Positions 25,301 to 32,546 are shown, numbered from the stretch's first letter. The stretch: DNA of 64,000 nt from an uncultured bacterium (GCA_943788175.1 CALSPG010000001.1:1-64000); one strand, 5' to 3'. Numbers and translations: made by a program. Notes: a model not told the origin generated them from the sequence alone.

Positions 25301-27145
25301 ATGTGTGGAATAGTTAGTTATATAGGGAATAAAGATCCTATACCAATTTTAATAAAGGGACTTAGAAGGCTTGAATATCGCGGATATGACTCTGCTGGTT
25401 TAGCCTTATTAGATGGTAAGATCTTAAAGAGTGTAAAAAAAGCTGGGAAAGTATCTGAATTATCAGATCAACTATCTGTTTCGCCACTCAAAGGAAATTG
25501 TGGAATTGCTCATACTAGGTGGGCAACGCACGGTGTTCCCAATGATATAAATGCACATCCTCATTTAGACAAGACCGGGAAAATAGCATTAGTTCATAAT
25601 GGAATAATTGAAAATTATGATTCAATAAAAAAGACATTAGAAAAAAGAGGTGTTGCTTTTTCTAGTGATACTGATTCAGAGGTTCTCGTTCAATTGATAT
25701 CTGAGATATATCACAATGATGAAGATCAATTAGATTTTAAAGATGCAGTAAAAGCTGCATTGCAAGAGGTTGTTGGTGCCTATGGAATTGTTGCTATGTG
25801 TTCCGATGAACCTGACTCACTTTTTGCAGCAAGAATGGGAAGCCCATTAGTTTTAGGTGTGGGTGAGAATGAGTTTTTATTTGCGAGTGATGCTTCGCCA
25901 ATTATTGAATACACAAGAAACGTAATCTATTTAGATGATGGTGAATTTGTTGAGGTAAAAAGTTCTGCCTATTCAATATCAAATATTTATACGGAAGAGA
26001 TTGTTTCAAAAACAATCACAAAGATAGATTTAACGATTGAAGAAATTGAGAAAGGTGAGTTTCCGCACTTTATGTTAAAAGAAATTCATGATCAAAAACA
26101 TTCTATAAGTGACACTCTTCGTGGTAGACTAAATTTAGAAGATGGAACCTCAATGTTAGGTGGTATTAATGATTATTTGCCAAATATTTTGGGAGCATCA
26201 AGAATATATATAACTGCTTGTGGAACTTCCTGGCATGCTGGTCTAATTGGTAAACATCTAATAGAAGAATATGCAAGAGTACCTGTACATGTAGAATATG
26301 CTTCAGAATTCAGATATCGTAATGCAATTATTGATGCAAATACTATTTTGATAGCCATTAGCCAATCTGGAGAAACTGCGGATACATTAGCTGCAATTAA
26401 AAAATCAAAAGAATTAGGTGCATTGACATTAGGAATATGCAATGTTGTTGGTAGTTCAATATCTAGAGAGACTGATGCGGGTATTTTTACTCATGCTGGG
26501 CCAGAAATAGGTGTAGCTTCTACAAAAGCCTTTACTGCGCAAGTTACAGTGCTAATTATGCTTGCGCTTAAAATAGGTAGGAAAAAAGGCGTATCCTTGC
26601 ATAGAGGAAAAGAATTAATAAGTTCATTAAAAAACATTGATATCAATGTTTCAAAAACATTAGAAACTATTAAATTAGTTAGACAAGTTGCAAAGGCAAC
26701 TCGCAAAGCAGATAATTATCTTTACTTAGGTAGAGGCGTTAATTTTCCGGTAGCATTAGAAGGTGCATTGAAATTAAAAGAAATATCTTATATACATGCT
26801 GAAGGTTATCCAGCTGCTGAGATGAAACATGGTCCAATTGCTTTAATTGATAAAGATATGCCAGTAGTTTTTCTTGCTCCTCAAGATGACACGTTTTTGA
26901 AAATTTTATCTAATATTGAAGAAGTAAAAGCTAGGGGTGGTATAATTATTACAGTAACAGATGAAGAGAATGATTCCTTGAACTCTTTATCAGACTATGT
27001 TTTAATTACACCAAAATCTCATCGCTATATTTTTCCAATAACGAGTTCTATTATATTACAAATGTTGGCTTATGAGTTAGCTCAATTTAGAGGCTGTGAA
27101 ATAGATCAGCCCAGAAATCTTGCGAAATCTGTAACAGTGGAATAG
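25301..27145 (+). CDS. glmS: Glutamine-fructose-6-phosphate aminotransferase
   Basis: MCGIV, LEYRGYDSAG, HTRWATHG, SQSGETAD and PRNLAKSVTVE*. Confidence 0.98.
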   Translation: MCGIVSYIGNKDPIPILIKGLRRLEYRGYDSAGLALLDGKILKSVKKAGKVSELSDQLSVSPLKGNCGIAHTRWATHGVPNDINAHPHLDKTGKIALVHNGIIENYDSIKKTLEKRGVAFSSDTDSEVLVQLISEIYHNDEDQLDFKDAVKAALQEVVGAYGIVAMCSDEPDSLFAARMGSPLVLGVGENEFLFASDASPIIEYTRNVIYLDDGEFVEVKSSAYSISNIYTEEIVSKTITKIDLTIEEIEKGEFPHFMLKEIHDQKHSISDTLRGRLNLEDGTSMLGGINDYLPNILGASRIYITACGTSWHAGLIGKHLIEEYARVPVHVEYASEFRYRNAIIDANTILIAISQSGETADTLAAIKKSKELGALTLGICNVVGSSISRETDAGIFTHAGPEIGVASTKAFTAQVTVLIMLALKIGRKKGVSLHRGKELISSLKNIDINVSKTLETIKLVRQVAKATRKADNYLYLGRGVNFPVALEGALKLKEISYIHAEGYPAAEMKHGPIALIDKDMPVVFLAPQDDTFLKILSNIEEVKARGGIIITVTDEENDSLNSLSDYVLITPKSHRYIFPITSSIILQMLAYELAQFRGCEIDQPRNLAKSVTVE

Positions 27146-27390
27146 CAGAAACAACCGGTTATCCTTACCCCTTAAAACTCATTGTAAGATTCTCATTTTC
27201 AGTTATTACCACTAAATTGTGGGATTCAAATTATAGTGAATATCAAGAGTATTTGTATAAACGTATTTGTCAATATAAAGAGGATTTTCTTACCCCTATC
27301 GGTTACAGAAAGATTTCTAAAATATTCAATGATGAGGGATTAAAAACCCCTCGAAATACAGAATTTGGTATTAGACCCATTCTGTGGTAG
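27142..27390 (+). pseudogene. Truncated recombinase-type HTH-like ORF
   Basis: LWDSNYSEYQEYLYKRI...IGYRKISKIFNDEGLKTPRNTEF; reads in the -1 frame through the glmS stop. Confidence 0.55.
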
Positions 27391-27466
27391 TGGTAATGTT
27401 GGAAAGGTATGTGATGTATTAGAACGAAACTTTGTTGGTTACGATTTGAATAACTATATAAGTTGA
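27365..27466 (+). pseudogene. C-terminal fragment of an N4/N6 DNA methyltransferase (beta-class, motif I)
   Basis: LVLDPFCGSG...LERNFVGYDL*. Confidence 0.7.
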
Positions 27467-27480
27467 AACATTTAATGTTT

Positions 27481-28473
27481 TTATTCAACTATCAAATTTT
27501 GATTGTTCACTACAAAATCAAAGGATAAATCTGATAAGCTATTTCCATTCACAGTGGCACCCCAAGGGCCATGACCTTTACCCTGTAATGGATAATAAAC
27601 AAAATCAATTTCATTTGTTTCCCATATAGTTTTTAAATCTTCAGCACTACTAAAAGGTACGGTGGTGTCTTCTGTTCCATGAGCTATAAACAATGATGGG
27701 TTATTTGAGTTAAACCTTTGGTATCCATAAACTAACTCCAGTATTTCTATAGATGCATTATTACCCCAAAAGTCTAAAATTGTTTGTACCTCATAGGTTT
27801 GAGAAAGATTAGTTGTTGATAAGGTACTATCTTCACTTAAACTTATTTCATCTTTATAGTCACCTAATTCTGATACACCGAGTCCTATAGAAGTAATTGC
27901 TCCTGCAGAACCACCACCAACAGTAATATAATCAGTATTAATGTGATAATTATCGGCATTAGCTATAATCCACCTTAAAGCAGCTTTGGCATCTCTGTGA
28001 GCAGGGTACATTGCATAAATTTGGTTGAGATTTGAAGGGGCACCACCAGAAGTGGCATTAATCCATTCTTGTGGAATCGTTCCCATTTGGTCTCTAAGTC
28101 TGTAGTCGATTGAAAATACAACAAAACCTCTTGATGCATAATAATTTGCCATATCCACAATGGCATCCTGTTGCTTGGAACCACCAACAAATGCACCGCC
28201 ATGAATTAACATTAGTAAAGGTCGATTTTGTGAATTATTTTCAGGAACATAAGAGTCCATATATAAAGGGAGTGCAGTTGTATTTGAACTGTTCCAATAA
28301 TCATGACTAAGTCCTTCAGCATAAATGATGTCTTCTGTTATATTAACATCATAGGTAGCATTCAACTTCACTGTTGGTGAAGAACTCTCATTTGTAACTA
28401 TGTTATCATCATCTTTTTCACATGAAATCAAAAAGACCATAATTAGTAAACTTGCAAAAATCTGTTTTATCAT
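27481..28473 (-). CDS. Alpha/beta hydrolase (HSL-like esterase) lipoprotein
   Basis: LISC lipobox, HGGAF, DYRL, GGSAG nucleophile elbow, HGTEDTTVP and GH. Confidence 0.88.
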   Translation of the reverse strand: MIKQIFASLLIMVFLISCEKDDDNIVTNESSSPTVKLNATYDVNITEDIIYAEGLSHDYWNSSNTTALPLYMDSYVPENNSQNRPLLMLIHGGAFVGGSKQQDAIVDMANYYASRGFVVFSIDYRLRDQMGTIPQEWINATSGGAPSNLNQIYAMYPAHRDAKAALRWIIANADNYHINTDYITVGGGSAGAITSIGLGVSELGDYKDEISLSEDSTLSTTNLSQTYEVQTILDFWGNNASIEILELVYGYQRFNSNNPSLFIAHGTEDTTVPFSSAEDLKTIWETNEIDFVYYPLQGKGHGPWGATVNGNSLSDLSFDFVVNNQNLIVE

Positions 28474-28651
28474 AATTTAATTTTTTAAATTTTCTTGTTA
28501 GACGCTTAAAATCATTTAAGGTTTAATTTAATTAACCCCAACCAAGAAACAATGGGATAAACCAAAACTCTCATCTTACATAAAACATATGAAATTAGAT
28601 GTGGGAAAGGATTAAGGGGTAAGGATAACCACCCCACAGAATTACCCCATC

Positions 28652-28663
28652 ACGGTTGAGTAG
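28652..28663 (+). repeat. Synonymous copy of glmS terminal codons (ACG GTT GAG TAG)
   Basis: Encodes TVE*; flanked by the ACCCCACA/TGTGGGGT inverted repeat (28631-28638 / 28668-28675). Confidence 0.7.
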
Positions 28664-28700
28664 ATAATGTGGGGTGAAGGGGTTGTCCAAAGGAATAATA

Positions 28701-29078
28701 TTAAAAACGTTTTTTAGAAATCAGTTTCCCTTTTTCATAAATTACTTCGGATATCTTGTTTCCATCATAATCCCATTCAGTACTTAAACCTTCTAGTTTC
28801 CCACGTTTGTAAGAAAATTCAAAACCCCTACTTCCATCTTCATACCACCCTCGATTTAATCCATGTTCTTTCCCATTTCTAAAATATAACTCAGATGACA
28901 TTACTCCATTAGAGTAATAGGTCTCTTTCTTTGTTTTAATTAACCCTCGAGATCCTTTTCTGTAATACTCTATGTAACGTATATAATCACCCGTAGAGTC
29001 TTTTTCAGTATGAATAATTTCTTGGGAATACATAACCGAACCAATTAATACTGATATAACAAATATATACTTTATCAT
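28701..29078 (-). CDS. Exported MORN-variant (YwqK-like) repeat protein
   Basis: YYSNG, NGKEHG..WYEDG and GKLEG..EWDYDG repeats; signal peptide; no Ala. Confidence 0.75.
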   Translation of the reverse strand: MIKYIFVISVLIGSVMYSQEIIHTEKDSTGDYIRYIEYYRKGSRGLIKTKKETYYSNGVMSSELYFRNGKEHGLNRGWYEDGSRGFEFSYKRGKLEGLSTEWDYDGNKISEVIYEKGKLISKKRF

Positions 29079-29212
29079 ATAAACTCCATTTCTAATCGTT
29101 AATACTACACAAAAGTATCCCCAAGAAATAAAGTAAAACTTGGGGTTTTATTTTTTATAAAGTTATTATTTGTAAATTAGGTGTGATATGAGAAAACCAA
29201 AATAGACATCAG

Positions 29213-29386
29213 ATGAATTATGTCACTCAATATGGTTGGGTATTCTGTGTTCTAATAACTATCCTTTTTTTGATAAAATTTATATTCAATATTACGGAAG
29301 GTGAATATGACTCTAAAAGTCTTTATGGAAATATAAGTTTAATTGGGCTTTCTTTAATTAGTTATTGGTCAAGAACTGATAAATGA
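29213..29386 (+). CDS. Small membrane protein (57 aa, no Ala)
   Basis: MNYVTQYGWVFCVLITILFLIKFIF...; two hydrophobic segments; below the ORF-track cutoff. Confidence 0.4.
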   Translation: MNYVTQYGWVFCVLITILFLIKFIFNITEGEYDSKSLYGNISLIGLSLISYWSRTDK

Positions 29387-29429
29387 ATCCCTTTATAATC
29401 ATATCTTTCCTTTTCAATTCCTTTAAGGT

Positions 29430-30851
29430 TGATTAAATGAAAAAACTCCTTCCATTATTATCTGTATTATTTTTGATTTACTGGAGTTGTGAAGATAAAA
29501 AAGAACCTCCGACTGAAGTAACCTTGTGGGGAGAAATTTATTCAGTGGAAGACACTGAACGTTTAGATTTTCATCGTAACGAACTTACAGGTCCAATCCC
29601 ATCAGAGATTTGGAATCTGACGAATTTAACATATTTAGATTTAAGTGAGAATCAATTCACCGGTTCTATCCCCTCAAAGATTGGTAATCTGACGAATCTG
29701 ACTGTTTTGGATTTAAGTCAGAATCAACTCACCGGTTCTATCCCCTCAAAGATTGGTAATCTGACGAATCTGACTGTTTTGGATTTAAGTCAGAATCAAC
29801 TCACCGGTTCTATCCCCTCAAAGATTGGTAATCTAACGAATCTGACTTATTTGTCATTAAGTGAAAATCTACTAACAGGTGAAATCCCATCAGAGATTTG
29901 GAATCTGACTAATCTGACTGAATTGAATTTATTCAATAATGACCTCACCGGTTCCATCTCTCCAGAGATAGGAAATCTGACCAATCTGACTTTATTGTTA
30001 TTAAGTGATAATCACCTCACTGGTTCTATCCCATCAGAGATTGGTAATCTAACGAATCTGACTGAACTGGGTATATACGGATCGGATATAGGGGTTAATC
30101 AATACCCAGGTTCTATTCCACCGGAAATAGGTAATTTGACCAACCTGACATATTTAAGTTTAGGTAATAAACAATTAACAGGTTCCATTCCACCAGAGAT
30201 AGGAAATCTGACGAATCTGACTTATTTGGATTTATATCGTAATGAACTCACAGGTTCTATTCCACCAGAGATAGGAAACCTGGTCAATCTAGAAAAGATA
30301 TTTTTACATCAAAATGAACTCACAGGTTCTATTCCATCAGAGATAGGTAATATGACCAATTTGATTAGTATCACTTCAGATAATAATCAACTATCAGGTT
30401 CTATTCCACCTGAGATAGGAAATCTGACGAAGCTGAGAGGATTGTATTTAAGTCGTAATGAACTCACCGGTTCCATACCACCTGAGATAGGAAACCTAGA
30501 CAGTTTGAGTCAATTTGATTTAAATAAAAATTACCTCACAGGTTCCATCCCACCAGAGATTGGTAATCTGACGAGACTTACTAATTTAGATTTCAGGGAT
30601 AATTACCTCACAGGTTCTATTCCATCAGAGTTAGGGGATTTGACCAATCTGTACAGATTGTATCTAGACTATAATCGACTGACAGGTTTAATACCAGAGA
30701 CAATATGTGATTTAAATATTAATTGGAGTAGTAGTTTCGCTGTTTCTCAAAACCAACTCTGTCCCCCATATCCATCTTGTATTGAAGATTATGTGGGGTA
30801 TCAGAGAACGAGTGGTTGTGATTAAATGAAAAAACTCCTTCCATTATTATC
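29430..30851 (+). repeat. 33-bp direct repeat TGATTAAATGAAAAAACTCCTTCCATTATTATC (29430-29462 / 30819-30851)
   Basis: Identical copies; the first contains the LRR gene start, the second its stop. Confidence 0.9.
29437..30825 (+). CDS. Leucine-rich-repeat lipoprotein (~15-16 plant-type 24-aa LRRs)
   Basis: WSC lipobox; LTGSIPPEIGNLTNLxxLxLxxN repeats; Cys-containing C-cap. Confidence 0.92.
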   Translation: MKKLLPLLSVLFLIYWSCEDKKEPPTEVTLWGEIYSVEDTERLDFHRNELTGPIPSEIWNLTNLTYLDLSENQFTGSIPSKIGNLTNLTVLDLSQNQLTGSIPSKIGNLTNLTVLDLSQNQLTGSIPSKIGNLTNLTYLSLSENLLTGEIPSEIWNLTNLTELNLFNNDLTGSISPEIGNLTNLTLLLLSDNHLTGSIPSEIGNLTNLTELGIYGSDIGVNQYPGSIPPEIGNLTNLTYLSLGNKQLTGSIPPEIGNLTNLTYLDLYRNELTGSIPPEIGNLVNLEKIFLHQNELTGSIPSEIGNMTNLISITSDNNQLSGSIPPEIGNLTKLRGLYLSRNELTGSIPPEIGNLDSLSQFDLNKNYLTGSIPPEIGNLTRLTNLDFRDNYLTGSIPSELGDLTNLYRLYLDYNRLTGLIPETICDLNINWSSSFAVSQNQLCPPYPSCIEDYVGYQRTSGCD

Positions 30852-30980
30852 AGTAAAAGACTTTTTCTTTTCATTATCTCTCTTCTTTATAAATAACATA
30901 CAATCCAAATACTCAAACCCATCTTTATGGATTGGGTGTATGTTTTTACAGGTTGGACATAAGGTAGGTTTCTTCTTCAT
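30822..30980 (-). CDS. Small CxxC-containing protein (52 aa)
   Basis: MKKKPTLCPTCKNIHPIHKDGFEYLDC; start overlaps the upstream ORF's stop (TAATG). Confidence 0.4.
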   Translation of the reverse strand: MKKKPTLCPTCKNIHPIHKDGFEYLDCMLFIKKRDNEKKKSFTDNNGRSFFI

Positions 30981-31312
30981 TAATGAACCTCTAACATTTT
31001 AACTCTGAAATTTCCAATACCATCTAGGATAGGTTGGGAGAAGAACTCATCTCTCTTTTTCATCTTCTTAATCATACTATCTACCGTAGTTCTACTCTTA
31101 CCAATTTTGTACCCATTCTTAACTAAATACTGGTGGATTTTTGTATAACCTAATCCTTGATTATGAAGTTCCCTAACTTTGTTATGTGTCTGTATTCTAC
31201 TATCTGATAATTGTTTTGTAAGATAGGGGGTAGGATTGAATTGATGAGATGTAATTACATAATCAAAAATGAGATGTGGGGTGATATCATCACTACCTAC
31301 AGAACTTACTCC
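30980..31312 (-). CDS. HTH-like protein, paralogue of 31321-31635; no canonical start before the conserved part
   Basis: TPHLIFDY...RELHNQGLGYTKIHQYLVKNGYKIGKSRTTVDSMIKKMKKRDEFFSQPI. Confidence 0.65.
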   Translation of the reverse strand, partial: GVSSVGSDDITPHLIFDYVITSHQFNPTPYLTKQLSDSRIQTHNKVRELHNQGLGYTKIHQYLVKNGYKIGKSRTTVDSMIKKMKKRDEFFSQPILDGIGNFRVKMLEVH

Positions 31313-31327
31313 ACCACCGTGGAGTAG
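31306..31327. repeat. Back-to-back TVE*/VVE* site with palindrome TACTCCAC-CACC-GTGGAGTA
   Basis: ACC GTG GAG TAG on + strand (31316-31327); GTG GTG GAG TAA on - strand. Confidence 0.75.
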
Positions 31328-31635
31328 AGTTTAGAAGTTCAACTCCATATTTAGTTTTTCAATTTTATACCAAAACTCACCACTTAAATAATACTTACTA
31401 CAACAACCCTGTTTCAGAGGAGAGAAAAGTTATTCAAGATGAAGTCATGAGACTTTATCATGAAGGTTGGGGTTACACAAAGATACATAAACACCTAATC
31501 AAAAATGGTTTCAAGATTGGTAAAAGTAGAACCTGTGTTGATAGTATCATTAAGAATAGATTGAAGAGGGAAGAGTTCTTAAATCAACCCATCATAAAAG
31601 AATATAGAAATTTTGATATTGAGTTTGTATATTAA
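31321..31635 (+). CDS. HTH-like protein; homology extends upstream of the ATG at 31447
   Basis: TPYLVFQF...RLYHEGWGYTKIHKHLIKNGFKIGKSRTCVDSIIKNRLKREEFLNQPI. Confidence 0.65.
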   Translation, partial: GVEFRSSTPYLVFQFYTKTHHLNNTYYNNPVSEERKVIQDEVMRLYHEGWGYTKIHKHLIKNGFKIGKSRTCVDSIIKNRLKREEFLNQPIIKEYRNFDIEFVY

Positions 31636-31655
31636 TCAAGATTAAAGGAGTCAGA

Positions 31656-32210
31656 ATGAAGAAAATTTTATTTATCTCAACATTTATATTTATAGTCGGT
31701 TGTGAAAAAGAACTTAAACTCCAAGAGGTTGGTCGGAATGTATATTATTTTAACAAGGATGGTGAGTTATTTATTGTTGATGATGAATTTCAAAAAAAAG
31801 TTGACACTCAGTTTTCTGTACCAATTGTAAAAAATAAATTTACCTTGGATAAAACTATTGGCTGGGACGGATTAGTTTTGGAATCCAAAGTAGTAGTTAA
31901 ATACATAGAGGGAGATTGTCACTTTAATGTAAAATTAAGTAAAAATAAATTAACTAGTAACTTTGAGAATACGAGTACTTACAAAAGAATTATGAATGAT
32001 TCCAATACTTTAGTGTCTATTCAATTAAAAGAAGAAGATAATTTTTTAATTAAAGAAATTGAAGTATCTCACTCAAAACATCTATTAAATAGATTTGTTG
32101 ATAGTACTTCTGTAACAGGATTTAATTATGGTGGAGTAGTCTCAATTTCAGAGAATTTATTTAAAAAAGTAAAAAGTATTGATCTAATGACTGTAATTGA
32201 CGATTTATAG
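31656..32210 (+). CDS. Hypothetical lipoprotein (no Ala)
   Basis: AAGGAG RBS, IVGC lipobox, 184 aa. Confidence 0.75.
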   Translation: MKKILFISTFIFIVGCEKELKLQEVGRNVYYFNKDGELFIVDDEFQKKVDTQFSVPIVKNKFTLDKTIGWDGLVLESKVVVKYIEGDCHFNVKLSKNKLTSNFENTSTYKRIMNDSNTLVSIQLKEEDNFLIKEIEVSHSKHLLNRFVDSTSVTGFNYGGVVSISENLFKKVKSIDLMTVIDDL

Positions 32211-32251
32211 TCATTTTCCATATTTCTGGAACTTCCAAACTACACTCATCT

Positions 32252-32263
32252 ACAGTCGAATAA
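32252..32263 (+). repeat. Synonymous copy of glmS terminal codons (ACA GTC GAA TAA), likely right island boundary
   Basis: 10/12 identity to the glmS end; followed by a GTTAACTTG/CAAGTTAAC hairpin. Confidence 0.7.
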
Positions 32264-32546
32264 TTTCAACTTTGTTGGTTAACTTGTAGTCTCAGACACC
32301 AAGTTAACGTCGACAAAACCATAACTATAAAACTTACAGAAAAACACTATAATGGATTCTCATTATCTCATTATGAGGTTTTGTTTATTTTTGTTACAGT
32401 TTTTTCAAATTATTAAGCCTTTTCACAAATTTTTTCTACTATTAAACCTAATCTATAGGTAATTATTGGCCCGGCGGCCTTTCAAGCAAGAATGTTTTTC
32501 CTCAAAAAATGCTTGTTGATTACATGCGGGTTTATAAGCTTTACGC

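Follow-up and report, generated by a model that had tools for sequence, protein, structure and literature searches.

Phages and broad-host-range plasmids avoid the sites of restriction enzymes: self-complementary words are scarce in the mobile DNA and not in the host chromosome, and the set of avoided words varies between elements. The same two features are found in a family of mobile elements of Marinimicrobia (SAR406), to which we relate an island at positions 27146–32416 of a 64 000-nucleotide (nt) stretch of DNA (the window) from an uncultured bacterium (GCA_943788175.1 CALSPG010000001.1:1-64000). The island is almost devoid of the dinucleotide GpC. Relative to restriction-site avoidance, what sets the elements apart is the length of the word (two bases), its complete absence from whole replicons and the removal of one amino acid, which leaves a proteome of 19 amino acids. 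A search of the literature gave no report of GpC depletion in bacteria, of GpC-free DNA, of alanine-free proteins or of such mobile elements in SAR406.

The cutters and methylases of Chlorella viruses have comparable specificities, of 2–4 bp with a GC core. R.CviJI recognizes RGCY and M.CviPI recognizes GpC, other enzymes act on CATG, GTAC, GATC and TCGA, and this list of 4-bp sites is much like that of the words avoided by the SAR406 elements. Enzymes with specificities as short as these are therefore possible. These enzymes, however, come from viruses of eukaryotic algae, whose DNA is protected by methylation and not by the absence of sites; their homologues were not sought here. Depletion of CpG, as in Mollicutes with CpG methylases and in RNA viruses facing the zinc-finger antiviral protein (ZAP), likewise concerns a self-complementary dinucleotide and an acting cellular system. 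It is partial, with a ratio of observed to expected counts (o/e) of about 0.2–0.5, and where methylation is the cause it shows an excess of TpG and CpA, whereas the SAR406 elements have a GpC o/e of 0.00–0.01 and no excess of the products. As mobile DNA, they resemble tRNA-targeting integrative elements and satellites like the phage-inducible chromosomal islands: they are small, code for a serine or tyrosine recombinase and an Xis-like helix–turn–helix (HTH) protein, have an attachment (att) site that copies the end of a tRNA gene, carry defence cargo and give circle-closing assemblies. Insertion just after glmS, seen in three genomes of one genus, recalls Tn7, the classic inserter downstream of that gene. 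Unlike these systems, the SAR406 elements have no recognized capsid, packaging, relaxase or Tns genes among 20 proteins scanned.

We consider it probable (roughly 75%) that the island is a remnant of this GpC-free element family, which is kept GpC-free by selection on DNA. Within the window, GpC is absent from positions 27148–27480, where base composition predicts eight, and occurs four times in 28506–32416 (at 29347, 30432, 30739 and 31861), where 101 are expected on the same basis (o/e 0.04). If 101 are expected, four or fewer would arise with a probability of 6e-38, and with one of 2e-45 if the GpC level of the host is taken as the basis. The esterase stretch between the two parts (27481–28505) has 28 GpC for 29 expected, and the flanks are normal in GpC, with 879 for 691 in 1–27146 (o/e 1.27) and 1035 for 811 in 32417–64000 (1.28). 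In the whole genome (2 265 538 bp, 12 contigs) GpC o/e is 1.18; among 11 274 windows of 1 kb, the only block with o/e below 0.35 is C1:28201–32401. When the stretches of the genome without GpC are ranked by length, the first five (1122, 1085, 843, 556 and 393 bp) all lie within the island, and the next has 370 bp. An earlier reading of the window by a model (the sequence-only reading) had listed the same four positions and the same empty patch against an expectation of about 100, and the sliding-window comparison that it proposed singles out the island. It had also stated that CpG, GG and CC remain common. This is right: GG (o/e 1.52 in the main block) and CC (1.47) are not depleted, and CpG is present (46 for 101 expected), though its o/e of 0.46 is below that of the host (0.68).

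Alanine is lost because all of its codons (GCN) contain GpC. No alanine is encoded in the island open reading frames (ORFs) of 57, 125, 57 (a second one), 58, 52 and 184 codons or in either of the 116-codon HTH frames, and the leucine-rich repeat (LRR) protein has one in 462 residues. Window genes with normal GpC have 5.5–8.1% alanine: 50 of 614 residues in GlmS, 23 of 330 in the esterase and 30 of 549 in an ABC binding protein. These counts agree with those of the sequence-only reading, both for the alanine-free 125-aa, 184-aa, 57-aa and HTH proteins with the single alanine of the LRR protein, and for the normal use of GCN codons in the flanking genes and the esterase.

DNA related to the island occurs in 21 of 41 related genomes (this genome counted). 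The places inspected have stretches of 0.75–4.4 kb with 0–2 GpC in otherwise normal contigs, often at contig ends. The GpC-free relatives are found in sister genomes and in single-cell and metagenome-assembled records of Marinimicrobia. When the 26-nt start of the LRR gene was used as a degenerate pattern against a collection of species-representative genomes, 12 stretches matched; all 12 lie in or beside GpC-free DNA, and most are from Candidatus Marinimicrobia/Neomarinimicrobiota (SAR406). One of them, the locus G041:C3, has 8601 bp without any GpC, and a tRNA-Phe gene is 170 bp away from the end of this stretch. The locus codes for alanine-free proteins: a serine recombinase of 230 aa, an Xis-like HTH protein, and LRR/Big_7 and MORN-type proteins. 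Two other genomes of the window's genus have GpC-free DNA with different cargo immediately after glmS (G006:C27 and G007:C171), so that insertion has repeatedly taken place at this spot. An artefact of sequencing or assembly is unlikely, as the GpC-free state recurs, with intact conserved frames, in single-cell genomes, metagenome-assembled genomes and several metagenome sources. That the island came from a separate gene pool, from which GpC is excluded strongly enough to remove alanine, had been proposed from the window itself; the relatives in many genomes and the whole alanine-free elements described below bear this out.

The serine recombinase of the G041:C3 type has 139 homologues at E ≤ 1e-3, and 103 of the best 120 (50–96% identical) are alanine-free. 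The recombinases of related elements carry the domains PF00239 and PF07508, with R7 and S9 invariant in 30 sequences. A metagenome scan with the recombinase gave 80 loci; contig-wide GpC o/e is at most 0.10 in 57 of them, and GpC is wholly absent in 28 (91 170 bp in total). Four contigs assemble as circles: L073 (8.1 kb, no GpC), L067 (10.7 kb, none), L089 (13.0 kb, four) and L095 (13.7 kb, four). Their ends overlap by 123–141 nt in L067, L073 and L095 and by 1.9 kb in L089. These closed circles of 8–14 kb have 0–4 GpC for 190–346 expected (0 of 190–262 in the circles with none), and whole element contigs 0–4 for 190–420. Contig L094 (17.8 kb, four GpC) was also considered as a circle, the N- and C-terminal halves of hsdM being at its ends, but did not close: there is no terminal overlap, and direct joining gives no single open frame.

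The residual GpC of the elements cluster in segments of 42–88 nt that are 95–100% identical to tRNA genes of this genome and are the att sites. Identity to the host is compulsory there, and the few GpC that are tolerated show that an element can survive some such sites if it gains enough by them. Cargo genes code, among others, for a complete Type I restriction system (HsdR, of 1004 aa, with HsdS and HsdM), tyrosine integrases, GNAT and SEC-C-motif proteins, lipoproteins and many proteins without an assigned family. Element proteins are alanine-free throughout, the serine and tyrosine recombinases and the restriction system included. The HTH family of the window, searched with a full-length member as the query, is similar: 112 of the 120 homologues listed are alanine-free, and one bears the SAR406 name. 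Intact recombinases with GpC-free flanks also occur in other families of the order and class; in 43 sampled genomes of the window's own family there was no intact recombinase, only remnants. A separate observation concerns an alanine-free cargo protein of 389 aa (L127, 2810–3976), the N-terminus of which resembles, by eye, defence nucleases of the PD-(D/E)XK type.

Known recombinases are distant from those of the elements. By tblastn, annotated plasmids and phages gave recombinase matches that are all less than 35% identical. In a viral contig collection no relative was found with the recombinase protein or with an alignment of the tyrosine integrase; the recombinase alignment had only five matches, of 26–34% identity, all with normal GpC and with 7–13 alanines. 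When 20 proteins of L094, L067 and L073 were compared with Pfam and PHROGs, in which alanine-free proteins may score poorly, GNAT, SEC-C motifs, integrases and a resolvase-like domain were named, and no nuclease, deaminase, GpC C5 methylase, replication, capsid, packaging or transfer gene was recognized. Two conserved element proteins gave no usable lead in the ESM Atlas.

The GpC-free state is old and actively maintained. Of 76 recombinase genes (42–100% identical), 70 have no GpC, and the other six sit on five separate branches, one of them a pair and four of them single tips, in a quick maximum-likelihood tree from an unfinished search. Between subclades dN/dS is 0.06–0.19 and dS ranges from 0.8 to above 1.7. 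In genes that are clearly functional, synonymous sites have thus been completely replaced and not a single GpC has arisen; the element genes are under purifying selection. Of the island's four GpC, the one at 30432 has arisen anew relative to the copy of the LRR gene in the sister genome G001 (95% identical), as would be expected if the constraint no longer holds once a copy is stranded; the GpC at 30739 is common to both.

Other palindromes are also purged from the elements, and depletion is strong for all the remaining 4-bp palindromes that contain G and C. A pooled set of 193 kb of non-redundant GpC-free DNA (55 498 residues for amino acid composition) gave a Markov o/e of 0.20 for CATG, 0.22 for ACGT and for GATC, 0.26 for GTAC, 0.32 for CTAG and 0.34 for TCGA. 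The same six palindromes have an o/e of 0.68–1.05 in the host, in which 4-bp palindromes total 0.87. Observed/expected counts for the seven 4-bp palindromes other than those with GpC are 13/211 in L089 and 10/217 in L095. L067 is without six of the seven and spares CATG (30/41), and L094 spares GATC (127/114); lineages would seem to differ in the enzymes that they meet, or to be protected at the spared site. The circles hold 5–8 of the 56 G/C-containing 6-bp palindromes, whereas host chunks of like size hold a mean of 37.9 (26–48); this is an extreme form of the pattern that classically marks restriction avoidance. Such an element-specific purge points to restriction-like enzymes with a GC core, whose selection would act on the double-stranded DNA.

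One partly relaxed lineage gives the flanks of the avoided word. L124 (8.3 kb) has 61 GpC, all 61 in AGCN or NGCT contexts; BGCV occurs 0 times for about 26 expected (P about 3e-15). The constraint therefore reads the flanks symmetrically, as a dimeric enzyme on double-stranded DNA would. AGC and GCT are both found on the coding strands of L124 (26 and 40 of 47 coding-strand GpC), which argues there against a constraint at the RNA level. Alanine has returned in this lineage, encoded by GCT alone; its loss is therefore purely a by-product. The same follows from the breadth of the purge. The host has, per 1000 codons, 54 GCN, 22 NGC and 25 junctions of G with C, and the elements have lost all of these, with intergenic DNA as GpC-free as the genes. 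The target is therefore the dinucleotide and not alanine or its tRNA, and an explanation by tRNA-Ala or alanine supply, which was considered, is ruled out by the equally full purge of NGC, junctions and intergenic DNA.

The purge might also have come about with no GpC-specific factor, by the summed selection of many restriction systems with GC-containing sites (AGCT, GGCC, TGCA, GCGC, CGCG, RGCY and longer ones) over long times in very large populations. Such a process would account for the loss of many other short palindromes in patterns that vary by element, and for context-specific GpC in the partly relaxed lineages, such as L124 with only AGCN and L088, in which RGCA predominates and palindromic contexts are scarce (7 for 22 expected). 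However, non-palindromic NGCN contexts, which make up 73% of host GpC, are also purged to zero in most elements, and the removal of conserved alanines is costly, so that each GpC must carry a sizeable penalty, beyond what rare long sites supply. We regard this explanation as unlikely.

It is more doubtful still that the elements avoid a GpC-directed DNA deaminase or hypermutator, by which GpC-containing copies would be mutated to death, in analogy to APOBEC footprints. Deaminase toxins that act on double-stranded DNA with a context preference are known, and avoidance of one would leave the same selection-type pattern, with any replacement allowed and absolute depletion. The joint, element-specific purge of unrelated 4-bp palindromes would be unexplained, though; no deaminase was seen in the elements or their neighbourhood among the proteins scanned, and the symmetric flank rule of L124 (no BGCV) is more typical of a dimeric enzyme that reads a palindrome.

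The sequence-only reading had put forward, beside counter-selection, a mutational origin: cytosines of GpC would be methylated by an enzyme of the M.CviPI type and lost by deamination to GpT and ApC, as CpG is under CpG methylases. GT and AC are indeed higher in the island and the pool (0.98 and 1.02) than in the host (0.80 and 0.79), the DEAH box of the alanine-free HsdR reads DEVH, and C5 methylases without assigned specificity occur in genomes of the family. But compensation is even: AC, CC, TC, GA, GG and GT are each up by 0.18–0.28 in the pool relative to the host, so that GA, TC, GG and CC have risen as much as GT and AC. The replacements of alanine, proposed earlier as a check for valine and threonine, point the same way. 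The normal HsdR homologues closest to the alanine-free HsdR are 55–61% identical and have about 4% alanine, and are thus not themselves alanine-free. In the 23 columns with alanine in at least half of 88 normal homologues, four alanine-free proteins have Gly 29, Ser 24, Cys 8, Val 7 and Thr 7 times; these are the chemically closest residues and not the mutationally nearest. In overall composition, alanine-free proteins have 0.6 points less valine and only 0.5 points more threonine, and are enriched in lysine, glutamate and arginine. Moreover, depletion is absolute in whole circles, and we know of no methylation-driven depletion that reaches this level in coding DNA. The state has outlasted the saturation of synonymous sites in genes under purifying selection, the chromosome of the host shows no such effect next to integrated copies, and the genome of the window has no match to the C5 methylase family PF00145. 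A mutational origin is thus highly improbable, and the other half of the earlier proposal, counter-selection by a GC-targeting agent, fits all of the data, including the co-avoidance of palindromes and the flank-dependent lineage.

An RNA target is no more credible than methylation: a GC-cleaving endoribonuclease of the MqsR toxin type (which cuts GCU, and from which genes free of cut sites are a known escape) would spare GC-less transcripts during element expression, and although GpC is tolerated in the non-coding att segments and depletion looks alike on both strands, GpC being self-complementary, the intergenic DNA is equally GpC-free, the avoidance of palindromic 4-mers is a signature of double-stranded DNA, and L124 tolerates AGC and GCT alike on its coding strands.

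We therefore return to selection on DNA, for which we propose the following course. The Marinimicrobia (SAR406) elements form a large old family, 8–14 kb in size when circular, that integrates into tRNA genes by means of serine and tyrosine recombinases and carries surface lipoproteins and often a Type I restriction system. GpC is probably excluded by continuing selection on the double-stranded DNA sequence and not by mutation bias. The selection would be exerted by one or more restriction-type enzymes with a GC core, either on entry into a new cell or when phages degrade host DNA, and an element without the word GC would escape cutting or marking. The island is probably a decayed, immobile remnant of such an element in a variable spot downstream of glmS; it is taken as a remnant because it has no recombinase, its methyltransferase is frameshifted and one of its GpC is newly gained. 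It retains a methyltransferase pseudogene, two HTH genes of the element type, a small Cys-rich gene and lipoprotein cargo. After stranding in the chromosome the constraint would lapse and GpC slowly return, four being present in the island.

That the selecting agent is a restriction-type enzyme with a GC core is a tentative identification, which we put a little short of even odds. There may be one enzyme for bare GC or several GC-core enzymes with different flanks, and the source may be the hosts, the elements themselves or phages that break up the DNA of their hosts. Somewhat less likely, though possible, is the more specific proposal that SAR406 cells or their viruses possess a DNA-targeting system for the two bases GpC and that the element lineage rewrote its genome without GpC in answer. 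Such a system could be a nuclease or nickase for defence, or a phage tool for shredding host DNA. In a bolder variant, the elements or a helper phage would encode the GpC cutter and be immune by lacking the word, which would amount to restriction without modification.

Several points weigh against selection on DNA by such an agent. Neither the host nor the elements nor any phage yielded an enzyme that recognizes GpC. The window's own genome (92% complete) has no PF00145 match and just one PF01555 protein, which looks degenerate. Of 54 family genomes, only 13 carry C5 methylases; the genes invariably lie in DNA of normal GpC, and their specificities are not readable from sequence. A cutter of every GpC should make the 3–6 GpC of an att segment costly, and yet these are retained. 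In the island itself the other palindromes are merely mildly low (34 for 59 expected). The strand argument from L124 is drawn from a single contig and lineage, and since GpC is self-complementary, the outcome of strand tests would in most lineages be compatible with a target in RNA. The segments of the pool were chosen for lacking GpC, so that their zero counts of GpC and alanine hold by construction and only the other dinucleotides are informative. Finally, no phage structural or conjugation genes were recognized among the 20 proteins of three elements, and no transfer route is thereby indicated.

The PF01555-like gene of the host lies at G000:C7:254664–256542 (L029, 258–2136), with the motifs EPPK and DPFMKNGD, back to back with a gene for a secreted endonuclease-I-like protein. 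This pair was considered as a possible GpC system and set aside, because the motifs look degenerate by eye.

The elements show that selection on a DNA word of two letters can be so strong and so persistent that all the proteins of a replicon lose one amino acid. Recombinases, a helicase–nuclease and methyltransferases that evolve under purifying selection without alanine constitute a natural experiment on reduced amino acid alphabets. If a GpC-targeting system does exist, these would be the first natural proteomes of 19 amino acids, and they would have persisted while synonymous sites underwent more than one substitution each on average. The proposal predicts an undiscovered GC-directed nucleic-acid enzyme in abundant uncultured ocean bacteria or in their viruses. 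Kilobases without GC are a simple signature by which elements and remnants may be found in marine data, and the number of regained GpC may serve as a clock for the time since a remnant was stranded.

The features of the island are listed in table 1. The left border coincides with the end of glmS, there is no tRNA gene near the island, and no recombinase gene was found among the ORFs checked in 27146–32416.

Table 1. Features of the GpC-poor island and its left border, with positions in the window.
Feature	Position	Strand	Remarks
glmS	25301–27145	+	host gene, normal: 50 Ala, 75 GpC; 3' end is the left border of the island
Left GpC-free patch	27146–27480		0 GpC
Left arm of perfect 19-nt inverted repeat	27157–27175		partner at 28612–28630; repeat unique in the genome
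N6/N4 DNA methyltransferase remnant, C-terminal, frameshifted, Ala-free	27217–27466	+	motif VLDPFCGSG
Esterase lipoprotein (BD-FAE/alpha-beta hydrolase)	27481–28473	-	27 GpC, 23 Ala, both normal
Main GpC-free block	28506–32416		4 GpC, about 101 expected
Right arm of 19-nt inverted repeat	28612–28630		contigs of two runs diverge exactly after 28630
MORN-variant repeat protein, 125 aa, secreted, Ala-free	28701–29078	-	weak PF07661 match
Hydrophobic ORF, 57 aa, Ala-free	29213–29386	+	one GpC, spanning codons
LRR lipoprotein, 462 aa, 24-residue repeats	29437–30825	+	LRR families; 72-nt repeats; 1 Ala, 2 GpC
ORF, 58 aa	30826–31002	+	opens with second copy of the 26-nt lipoprotein gene start (MKKLLPLLS)
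Cys-rich small protein, 52 aa	30822–30980	-	conserved gene that accompanies the elements
Element-family HTH protein, copy 1, 116-aa frame, Ala-free	30983–31330	-	overlaps copy 2
Element-family HTH protein, copy 2, Ala-free	31285–31635	+	divergent from copy 1; 94% DNA identity to G007:C171
Lipoprotein, 184 aa, no family assigned, Ala-free	31656–32210	+	1 GpC

The methyltransferase is a pseudogene remnant, in which full catalytic and S-adenosylmethionine-binding domains in one frame are absent. It is classified as such because only profile positions 170–215 of PF01555 are matched (at 27302–27460, 34.5 bits for a cut-off of 26.7), with one internal stop and a frameshift. The 57-aa ORF at 27217–27390, which the sequence-only reading took for an HTH protein, is a piece of it. 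The adjoining esterase is a foreign cassette inside the island and outside the GpC-free pool, because its GpC and alanine contents are normal. It has no relative in 25 related genomes at E ≤ 1e-20, and contigs from other runs part from the window at 27477 and 28489, the ends of the esterase. The 19-nt inverted repeat brackets the methyltransferase remnant together with the esterase and may mark an inversion or the boundary of a cassette. In four marine runs, contigs at least 90% alike to the esterase gene have 10–30 times the depth of the adjoining DNA; the gene or a close copy is therefore also present in more abundant organisms. The CpG o/e of the esterase gene is just 0.27.

The other genes have counterparts in GpC-free DNA elsewhere. 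The 125-aa MORN-variant protein clusters with nine alanine-poor relatives from other GpC-free islands, and its gene has a dN/dS of 0.15 relative to the copy in G001. Relatives of the LRR lipoprotein in other islands are alanine-free. Homologues of the 52-aa Cys-rich protein, which corresponds to cluster C21 of the pool, adjoin the recombinase in L053. A direct repeat of 37 nt is found at 29430 and 30819, and the 58-aa ORF is probably a truncated cassette. Contigs of two RNA libraries overlap parts of the island, which is no evidence of transcription.

Within this genome, the 26-nt gene start (29437–29462 and 30826–30851), which codes for the beginning of a signal peptide, MKKLLPLLS, is found in the island only. 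In nearly invariant form it heads diverse lipoprotein genes of GpC-free islands across species (L010, L013, L019, L023 and L040), and it may be a recombination handle for the swapping of cargo cassettes. The two HTH copies (30983–31635) face apart, and their frames overlap by 46 nt (31285–31330), an arrangement that resembles a head-to-head duplication.

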